A stretch of DNA of 64,000 nt from Alphaproteobacteria bacterium (GCA_017475525.1 JAFVFH010000034.1:4375-68374); one strand, 5' to 3'; shown: positions 10,281 through 11,405, numbered from the stretch's first letter. Notes: generated by a model not told the origin, from the sequence alone. Program-made: numbers and translations.

Positions 10281-10328
10281 TTTAAAAAAATCTCCCGTGT
10301 CTGCCTTTTAAGGTCAAAACACGGGAGA
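10281..10328 (-). terminator. intrinsic terminator of GC-rich gene (minus sense)
   Basis: ctcccgtgt...acacgggag 9-bp stem (10292-10300 / 10319-10327) followed in minus sense by U-run (plus aaaaaaa 10281-10290). Confidence 0.55.
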
Positions 10329-10351
10329 GTAAGTTTTGGACGTCGTCCTTT

Positions 10352-11203
10352 CTAGCACGGGAAGTCCAGCGTTGAGCAGGACTCCATGACACGCTCGGCA
10401 ATCTCATTACCGGTCATGTTCTCATCGAACTCTACGAGCTCGACATTTCTGCCGGCAGCCTTGGCAGCCTTGACGATGGCATCCCAGTGCTCGGTGAGAG
10501 CCTTGTTCGCCACCACGACCATGCGTACCCACGGGCAGCAGGCCAGGATGACCCACGTATGGGTGCCTGCAATCCCGACGCAGTAGTCGCAACCGCCGTA
10601 GACAGGGAGCAACTTTTCGTGGGCGACACCACGGATGCCGTAGACATCGGGGTTGCTCTCGGTGCCCGGCACGTAGAGCCCGAAGTCATCTGCAAGGGCG
10701 TCCACAGCCGGCTTGTCAGCAACTTTGTTAAAGTGCTGACCCAAGACGAGCCGAACACCCTCAATGGATTTCAGGAAGTTGAAGACATTGGGGGTCAGGC
10801 TCTGCTGGGCGGCATTGAGCCCGCAAGCGCCGTCACTCACGAGCTTCTGGGGAACAAAAAGGATGTTCTCCATCTCCGAGAGCTCCGGATAAACGGCAGA
10901 GGGCTGCCGTGTGGGGGTCAGAGTCGACTTGAAAAAGTCTGTCCACACTTCATCAGACAATGTGCCGGCTTTTAGCTCGCCGATGATGTCCCAAGCATCG
11001 ATGTTCTCACGCTCCTCGAAGGGAACGATCTCCATTTTGCCATAGAAGAAGCTCATCACATCATAGATGCGCTGAGCCTCGGCGTCATACTCTTCCTTGT
11101 TGTCCTTTTTGGGAGCGATGAGGATTTTCACGCCATAGGCATTGGCGAAACCACATGCCATGATTTCATGGCCGAAGCTTGAAGCAATAACGATATTTTT
11201 CAT
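10352..11203 (-). CDS. high-GC horizontally acquired gene; possible MurG/PseG-like GT-B fold protein (tentative)
   Basis: About 55-60% GC by eye against about 38% background; 283-aa ORF; N-terminal IASSFGHE..A and C-terminal GIAGTHTWVILACCPW.VVV resemble the glycine-loop motifs of GT28/PseG-type enzymes, but weakly. Confidence 0.45.
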   Translation of the reverse strand: MKNIVIASSFGHEIMACGFANAYGVKILIAPKKDNKEEYDAEAQRIYDVMSFFYGKMEIVPFEERENIDAWDIIGELKAGTLSDEVWTDFFKSTLTPTRQPSAVYPELSEMENILFVPQKLVSDGACGLNAAQQSLTPNVFNFLKSIEGVRLVLGQHFNKVADKPAVDALADDFGLYVPGTESNPDVYGIRGVAHEKLLPVYGGCDYCVGIAGTHTWVILACCPWVRMVVVANKALTEHWDAIVKAAKAAGRNVELVEFDENMTGNEIAERVMESCSTLDFPC

Positions 11204-11405
11204 AACTGAAAAAAATTTTTTTTCTACGTGTTCCTACTCCTTAGGTAGACATCACGGGAAAAAACATACCGTCCGACGAAACGTCCGATTTGTAATTTCC
11301 AAATAATTAAACATAATGAGATTTTAAACTTTCCTTCTTGAGGCTCAACCTCTGTGAGCCATCAATTTTATGTTACACAATGCACATTTTGTCTAAAGTC
11401 TATCA

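Follow-up and report, generated by a model that had tools for sequence, protein, structure and literature searches.

The gene examined here lies in a 64,000-nucleotide stretch of DNA from an Alphaproteobacteria bacterium (GCA_017475525.1 JAFVFH010000034.1:4375-68374), which we refer to as the window and in which all positions are counted from the first letter. It is an open reading frame (ORF) that starts with ATG and encodes a 283-aa protein, has no second copy in the window, and is neighboured by DnaJ and DUF1349 genes and by a TetR-MFP-RND efflux operon. A first-pass annotation had singled it out as a GC-rich gene in AT-rich DNA, transcribed divergently from the efflux operon and probably acquired horizontally; the arrangement and the composition were both confirmed by our analysis, and it is the origin of the gene and of its composition that we address. 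Two features are central:

10331-11390, no strand assigned: window-specific inserted segment of about 1.06 kb (coding sequence (CDS) plus its own 5' leader and promoter), edges placed within a few tens of bp
10352-11203, minus strand: 283-aa CDS (GC 0.553; GC at third codon positions (GC3) 0.708) for a glycosyltransferase-like protein with a predicted GT-B fold, family unassigned

The ORF is the global GC maximum of the window (z = 3.9; all 852-bp windows: mean 0.412, s.d. 0.036), the whole of which has a GC content of 0.413. In 300-bp windows, GC is 0.57-0.60 within the ORF and 0.29-0.45 on both sides; the background had been put at about 38%, and is about 41% overall with 29-45% in the immediate flanks. 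GC3 stands far above that of the 47 other ORFs in the window (0.405 ± 0.074, z = 5.2), and the corresponding values for first and second positions are z = 2.0 and z = 0.1, indicating that the GC excess is a synonymous-site effect. The enrichment ends at the CDS edges, and the adjoining non-coding DNA is AT-rich (about 31-37% GC; 0.375 at 10264-10351 and 0.328 at 11204-11340). Codon usage, proposed earlier as a check alongside sliding-window GC, deviates as well: the relative synonymous codon usage (RSCU) of the gene is uncorrelated with that of the host genes (r = 0.05), as against a median of 0.79 and a minimum of 0.47 for host ORFs compared with the host. An overlapping antisense gene was considered and rejected, since the open runs of 199-218 codons are not longer than in synonymous-codon shuffles (p = 0.07-0.28). 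TTA, CTA and TCA are not visibly more depleted than other A-ending codons, judging by counts inspected by eye. A second local GC rise (0.54) at 7300-7700 lies within the L-serine dehydratase gene at 6420-7838, the overall GC3 of which (0.47) is inside the host range.

To place the gene in its genomic setting, relatives of the flanking genes were collected via the adjacent DUF1349 gene. In the sister species L113/L114, DUF1349 is 93% identical, the flanks are 84-89% identical in nucleotides (nt) and the order GNAT-SDH-DnaJ-DUF1349-TetR-MFP-RND-MliC-LRR-RsfS-Obg-L27 is kept, and the GC-rich gene is absent, with TetR beginning about 95 bp after DUF1349. It is also absent from more than 30 further DUF1349 relatives (42-93% identity, human-gut genomes included), and 30+ relatives retain the DnaJ-DUF1349-TetR-RND context, all without the gene. 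Two further features of this intergenic region bear on where the insertion begins and ends:

10291-10328, no strand assigned: predicted terminator hairpin TCTCCCGTGT...ACACGGGAGA; a minus-strand U7 run occupies 10284-10290
11404-11421 and 11501-11518, no strand assigned: two copies of the palindrome TTTAAACGTACGTTTAAA, ancestral TetR-side intergenic DNA, given as context

In L115/L116 (82%), the gap between DUF1349 and TetR measures 574 bp and has in common with the window the terminator hairpin, the region upstream of TetR and, in degenerate form, the two palindromes. Homology to the window extends through the hairpin to ~10330 and restarts at ~11395, and the window-specific DNA is therefore ~10331-11390. 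Judged by L113/L114, which are without everything between 10257 and ~11590, the insert would have included the terminator and the palindromes; this delimitation is overturned by L115/L116, which show these elements to be ancestral, and the TTAAGC found at both L113-based junctions, a candidate target duplication, is not present at the corrected edges. The GC boundaries had been said to coincide with the ORF and its terminator; they match the CDS, but the terminator lies outside the acquired DNA. What the window has in common with contigs of the closest clade (L075-L078, 74-84% aa identity) is limited to the gene with roughly 130 nt of its leader, the flanks being unrelated. In the same slot and on the same strand, L115 (8630-8830) and also L116 carry an unrelated 42-aa hydrophobic ORF (MIVFVFGVVVVMFCIIGSVYFMTETIREISDIFSYLRYLRKK), and L079/L080 have no TetR at the DUF1349-TetR position. 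Therefore, this intergenic region is a variable cargo site.

These comparisons support the conclusion that the GC-rich gene is a lineage-specific acquisition and not ancestral. Were it ancestral at this position and deleted in the relatives, no acquisition would be needed, and deletions do happen here, as L113/L114 have lost ancestral intergenic DNA, namely the terminator and palindromes, still present in L115 and in the window. However, we regard this as very improbable given the more than 30 relatives without the gene, the different small ORF in the slot of L115/L116, the unrelated contexts in which the closest relatives of the gene reside, and a tblastn search in which the slot of the relatives showed no remnant or pseudogene fragment of the gene. 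An assembly chimera or contamination of the metagenome-assembled genome (MAG) is a negligible prospect: the contig is metagenome-assembled and hypervariable genes break assemblies, yet the sequence runs unbroken through both junctions, which are in host-typical AT-rich DNA, the identical protein is found on two contig records (the 100% identical homolog being IJ870_02740 of an Alphaproteobacteria MAG), and homologs occupy chromosomal contexts in 66 related genomes.

The family to which the protein belongs is narrowly distributed. We found 262 homologs; an exhaustive profile search of 1.84 billion proteins returned only 70 family clusters at 50% identity, and species-representative genomes contain 67 family loci in 66 genomes, nearly all labelled as uncultured gut or rumen Alphaproteobacteria or as 'Azospirillum sp.'. 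No homolog outside gut/rumen Alphaproteobacteria was found among 5.8 billion and 1.84 billion proteins or among the species-representative loci, and the IMG/VR viral contigs yielded none. A small plasmid or phage origin, considered because of many ~7-kb contigs, was rejected, as these are chromosome fragments beside rplKAJL and IMG/VR is without homologs. One locus labelled Lachnospiraceae, L023 (CAVBCV010000042.1), has the same rplKAJL ... LuxS-M20 arrangement as the distant locus L001 and flanks mostly 90-100% identical to it in nt; its label probably reflects mis-binning. In the MAG JAZNSB01, two family paralogs reside on separate contigs (L047 and L065), with GC3 offsets of +0.12 and -0.03.

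We next compared the composition of the gene with that of its homologs in their own genomes. The nearest homologs have a GC3 of 0.64-0.72 in contigs of 43-47% GC, and in 82% of 68 loci the GC3 of the homolog is higher than the local mean; in 31 of the 68, no other ORF within ±10 kb reaches its GC3. The excess averages +0.10 (Wilcoxon p = 3e-9) and is found in almost every deep clade of the gene tree, with the window gene as the extreme of the family (+0.31); gene GC3 also tracks host GC3 (slope 0.73, r = 0.64). Of the 22 families that recur in the loci, this one alone shows a strongly positive offset (+0.10; 32 of 65 loci have it as top ORF), and ribosomal-protein families have negative offsets in the same loci. 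The pattern is codon-specific: in the window gene, NNY codons are C-ending at a fraction of 0.65 versus 0.34, Gln, Lys and Glu codons are G-ending (GAG 0.83, CAG 1.00), and NCG codons are avoided. Synonymous divergence (dS) of the window gene from its closest relatives is at least 1.6, that is, saturated, at a ratio of nonsynonymous (dN) to synonymous divergence of about 0.1, and the RSCU of the gene correlates with theirs at r = 0.78 and with that of the distant homolog in L001 at r = 0.57. A codon style kept through saturated dS must be actively maintained. We conclude that the high GC content is a third-position codon style private to the family, and not the signature of a donor genome.

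A recent transfer from a GC-rich donor lineage, with a composition not yet ameliorated, would fit the extreme GC and GC3 of the gene within the window, the lack of correlation between its codon usage and that of the host genes, and the fact that it is an insertion. Nevertheless, we find this origin very improbable and for the most part refuted: homologs are confined to gut/rumen Alphaproteobacteria, the gene of the nearest relatives is equally GC3-rich in contigs of 43-45% GC, the non-coding DNA of the insert has only 31-37% GC, GCG is depleted rather than enriched, and the excess recurs over deep clades at saturated dS. The horizontal acquisition first proposed thus stands as a lineage-specific insertion, with an empty site in relatives, but not as an import from a compositionally foreign, GC-rich lineage, as the best homologs come from relatives that are equally GC3-rich. 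Ordinary translational selection, in which very high expression would favour host-optimal codons, is likewise unlikely. It would account for an enrichment limited to the CDS and to third positions and for the preference for C-ending NNY codons, and the window contains a tRNA-Gln(CUG) gene. However, ribosomal-protein genes (rpmA in the window, rplKAJL in L001) prefer the opposite four-fold and NNR codons, namely T-ending four-fold codons and A-ending Gln, Lys and Glu codons (G fraction 0.03-0.36 versus 0.61-0.76 in the homolog), and the GC3 offsets of ribosomal-protein families are negative.

Homologs in the clade linked to rplKAJL allow allelic divergence to be compared with that of adjacent genes. 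Here, neighbouring genes have a dS of 0.04-0.3, versus a dS of 0.37-1.4 and a dN of 0.05-0.16 for the homolog; some other pairs show the reverse, with the neighbours more diverged than the homolog. Sliding identity drops from 94-100% in the flanks to a sharply bounded block of 60-89%, and in four comparisons the diverged block is exactly the ORF, from start to stop codon. In one clade, the ORF is 78-85% identical in nt within flanks that are 94-100% identical. The rplKAJL-linked homologs form 62 clusters at 90% identity, with a median aa identity of 84% and a more variable N-terminal (predicted acceptor-side) domain. Such ORF-bounded divergence is the product of allelic replacement by recombination, or of long-lived balanced alleles, and gene-only contigs of ~1 kb may represent assembly bubbles of hypervariable alleles. 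Directly upstream of the homolog in this clade lies a 156-aa ORF (L001 2607-3077), the nt identity of which to L001 is 60-82% in L017, L020 and L023 and 98-100% in L031, L117 and L118; as it is variable in some pairs only, recombination breakpoints differ between strains.

The 283-aa protein matches no Pfam family at E ≤ 1 and no NCBIfam family, it has no significant match in PHROGs, PADLOC, a phmmer search of the PDB or a PDB profile search, and none of the 262 homologs has a Pfam domain. Its AlphaFold2 model (pLDDT 89.6, pTM 0.89) consists of alternating strand and helix elements in two domains. Foldseek searches with this model returned mostly GT-B enzymes from the PDB (TibC, POMGNT2, OtsA, sialyltransferase and EarP; TM 0.3-0.5) and 17 matches at E ≤ 1e-3 from BFVD, of which the annotated ones are mostly GT61, GT9, Aah/TibC-like and GT1. 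The model, a confident one, predicts a GT-B-like fold of two Rossmann domains in an unassigned family. The family alignment has 57 invariant columns, including FGHE, PQKLxSDxxCG, QQS, LGQHF, VPG, IRG, GIAGTHTW and FDE; FGHE is at the beta1-alpha1 loop, and GIAGTHTW is a Gly-rich loop after a strand of the C-terminal domain. A weak resemblance to MurG and PseG had been noted from the motifs IASSFGHE and GIAGTHTWVILACCPWVRMVVV, both of which are indeed found in the translation. This hint holds for the fold class, GT-B, as judged from the model and Foldseek, but not for membership in glycosyltransferase (GT) family GT28: there is no Pfam or NCBIfam match at E ≤ 1, PF03033 and PF04101 included. 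FGHE bears a resemblance, and no more, to the N-terminal Gly-rich loop of MurG/PseG with its catalytic His, and the divergent family member P0232 has ESSGY at the corresponding place. We take the C-terminal strand-GxxGxxT-helix motif to resemble the donor loop of MurG, and heptosyltransferases have a similar donor-binding motif where this family has GIAGTHTW. The invariant GIAGTHTW loop, together with E238 in the C-terminal half, suggests that a nucleotide-sugar donor would bind in the C-terminal domain.

Only two functional neighbours recur, in about 14 species: one is ELM1-like, about 429 aa long and a weak match to PF06258, and the other has 227 aa. In P0232 (595 aa), an N-terminal ELM1-like (PF06258) domain is fused to a C-terminal divergent family member in which the FGHE histidine is replaced (ESSGY). 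The other recurrent neighbours in the 70 other loci are unrelated housekeeping genes, and a glycan-cluster context was therefore rejected. In Acinetobacter, the inner core of lipooligosaccharide (LOS) involves an ELM1-like enzyme, KdoT, which is an inverting CMP-Kdo transferase with a GT-B fold; it depends in vivo on the following glycosyltransferase, its partner being GnaT, and a Rickettsia homolog complements it (PMC12856342). ELM1-like proteins have a conserved C-terminal SRRT motif (PMC12856342), which is absent from the 283-aa sequence. With modest confidence, we suggest that the family protein may be a glycosyltransferase acting on an envelope glycoconjugate.

Taken as a whole, we think it fairly probable that the insert is a single-gene cargo of ~1.06 kb that encodes a GT-B-like enzyme, is written in the codon style of its family and owes that style to a gene-specific fixation bias. 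In this lineage only, an intact CDS with its own leader and promoter would have entered the slot bounded by the terminator of DUF1349 and the regulatory region of TetR, most probably coming from another gut/rumen alphaproteobacterium, with recombination as the route and not a transposable element. Its product would be a cytoplasmic GT-B-fold enzyme of two Rossmann domains, probably an inverting-type glycosyltransferase, in which the invariant His of FGHE may act in the acceptor domain at the beta1-alpha1 loop and GIAGTHTW may form the donor-binding loop; the putative target is an envelope glycoconjugate, possibly beside an ELM1/KdoT-like transferase of the lipopolysaccharide (LPS) core. The codon style (C-ending NNY and four-fold codons, G-ending Gln, Lys and Glu codons, NCG avoided) would be kept in most hosts. 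As the family appears to be exchanged as ORF-bounded alleles, the GC3 surplus is best attributed to a gene-specific fixation bias, which could be either recombination-associated GC-biased gene conversion (gBGC) or selection on the coding sequence; recombination tracts limited to the ORF would explain an enrichment limited to the ORF.

It should be noted that a number of observations weigh against parts of this explanation. About 18% of the loci have no GC3 excess. Four-fold sites in the window gene gain C only (0.47 versus 0.25), G being flat and GCG depleted, unlike simple gBGC, and this C-only gain, together with the avoidance of NCG, points to codon-level selection and away from gBGC. No convincing terminal repeats or target-site duplication surround 10331-11390, and the mechanism of insertion is therefore inferred; no integrase, transposase or other mobility gene lies within ±10 kb of the insert, the nearest tRNA is 7 kb away with none adjoining, and no donor was found, the nearest homolog being 84% identical and on a 1-kb contig. 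Foldseek TM values are low (0.3-0.58) and no sequence link joins the protein to any glycosyltransferase family. The ELM1-like partner adjoins in only about a fifth of the loci, no ELM1 or KdoT gene is present in the window, and homology of the protein to its ELM1-like neighbour was tried and rejected (no PF06258 match; hhalign profile comparison probability of 0.2%). Lastly, the data all come from MAGs and metagenome contigs, with backgrounds taken from ±10 kb per genome.

Part of this evidence bears on an explanation that would dispense with biased gene conversion, namely that selection acts on the coding sequence for a reason unrelated to translation speed, such as stability of the mRNA where the transcriptome is AU-rich, escape of the transferred gene from AT-targeting xenogeneic silencing of the MucR/H-NS-like kind, or codon-gated translation that relies on particular tRNAs or modifications. 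The conservation of the codon style across saturated dS, its codon-specific pattern (the C-only rise at four-fold sites and the avoidance of NCG), the mobility or exchange of the gene and the presence of a structured, conserved leader would all be in keeping with it. We consider it possible and yet distinctly less probable than the explanation set out above, as each of the three mechanisms is only a candidate, about 18% of the loci lack the excess, and gene GC3 still follows the host (slope 0.73). Equally tentative is our speculation that selection keeps a private GC3 dialect in a hypervariable, exchanged cassette, with frequency-dependent pressure from phages or host immunity on a modification of the LPS core or of another glycan keeping many alleles in circulation; such a dialect might, for example, help the gene to be expressed or to escape silencing in an AT-rich host, or it might gate translation.

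Two features upstream of the gene belong to the inserted segment:

11204-11333, minus strand: 5' leader travelling with the gene, with two predicted hairpins; sole non-coding stretch common with the close-clade contigs
11321-11348, minus strand: promoter-like site TTGAGC-16 nt-TAAAAT, consensus match 9/12, overlapping the conserved block GGAAAGTTTAA

In separate folds of the leaders of the window (11204-11300, minus strand), L075 (40-139) and L077 (318-417), the outer stem of the second hairpin (about 11223-11252 in the window) covaries as CGUG/CACG, CGUGG/CCACG and CGAGG/CCUCG, respectively; the leader of L076 is without this hairpin. Its loop holds AGGAG, about 33 nt before the ATG. The nucleotides just ahead of the start codon are rich in A and U, and a Shine-Dalgarno sequence is missing from its customary position. 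An Rfam search for an RNA family in or near the gene returned one chance match only. Downstream of the gene, the hairpin at 10291-10328 (-26.5 kcal/mol, z = -4.8), followed by U7, is a strong predicted intrinsic terminator for a minus-strand gene. As L115/L116 have it at the same place and are without the gene, it belongs ancestrally to the 3' end of DUF1349 and would also serve the inserted gene.

On the TetR side, the palindrome TTTAAACGTACGTTTAAA has 2 matches versus 0.13 expected; these are separated by 97 bp and precede the TetR-MFP-RND operon. Degenerate copies are found in L115/L116 and none in L113/L114, and the two copies of the window may be operator sites. A different palindrome, ATACCTACCCGAAGGTAT (11650-11667), is found some 25 bp upstream of the start of TetR and is exact in L113/L114, with ATACATACTTTCTAGTAT in its place in L115; it is the likelier candidate of the two for a TetR operator. 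Between the TTTAAACGTACGTTTAAA copies, a C8 run (11477-11484) in otherwise AT-rich DNA, absent in L115, could be a slipped-strand (phase-variable) tract. A second variable region, beside a tRNA, is found upstream of ~5950, where the synteny of L113/L114 with the window ends. The window has at 3257-5950 an AT-rich segment (about 35% GC) with tRNA-Gln(CUG), a Pfam-less 236-aa ORF and an AAA_14/DUF4143 ATPase, opposite which the sister species has other genes, one of them with a Phage_30_3 domain.

High GC in a gene of an AT-rich genome is usually taken as the fingerprint of a foreign donor. In the present case, the gene is indeed inserted, yet the fingerprint is not that of the donor; the codon style travels with the family over dozens of species and through saturated divergence, and coincides with ORF-bounded replacement of alleles. 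These findings caution against inferring a donor from composition alone, and we suggest that the family is a compact natural test case for separating biased gene conversion from selection as the source of a local GC rise. They also bring to light an undescribed glycosyltransferase-like family, linked to ELM1/KdoT-like enzymes, in abundant uncultured gut bacteria.

The family can be set against several known systems. Integron cassettes differ from the insert, whose gene has its own promoter region. In structure, the best PDB matches, TibC (4rb4) and POMGNT2 (6xfi/7e9l), have two Rossmann-like domains in common with the 283-aa protein, which is, however, unusually compact beside GT9/Aah-TibC and GT61 enzymes, with 8-12% sequence identity and TM 0.3-0.58. 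MurG is universal, whereas this family is confined to one group of gut Alphaproteobacteria, and the window gene and the 70 other loci are outside any dcw or pseudaminic-acid cluster, unlike MurG and PseG of GT28. KdoT and GnaT offer a plausible model for a two-enzyme step carried out by the ELM1-like partner and the family member.

In their evolution, glycosyltransferase loci of O-antigen and LOS, and surface-antigen loci, are hypervariable and replaced by recombination, and they resemble this family in that many alleles coexist, diverge far more than the nearly identical flanks and have their breakpoints at the edges of genes. O-antigen and LOS-type loci usually lie below the GC content of the genome and form multi-gene clusters; by contrast, this family consists of a single gene for a predicted cytoplasmic enzyme with a GC3 above that of its genome. 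Bacterial genes that recombine have a raised GC content, independently of codon selection (Lassalle et al. 2015, PMC4450053). The family resembles such gBGC enrichment as a recombining gene with raised GC3 against the AU-ending preference of ribosomal-protein genes, and differs from it in that the effect is large (+0.1 on average, +0.31 in the window), is found in one family only and involves a C-only gain at four-fold sites.

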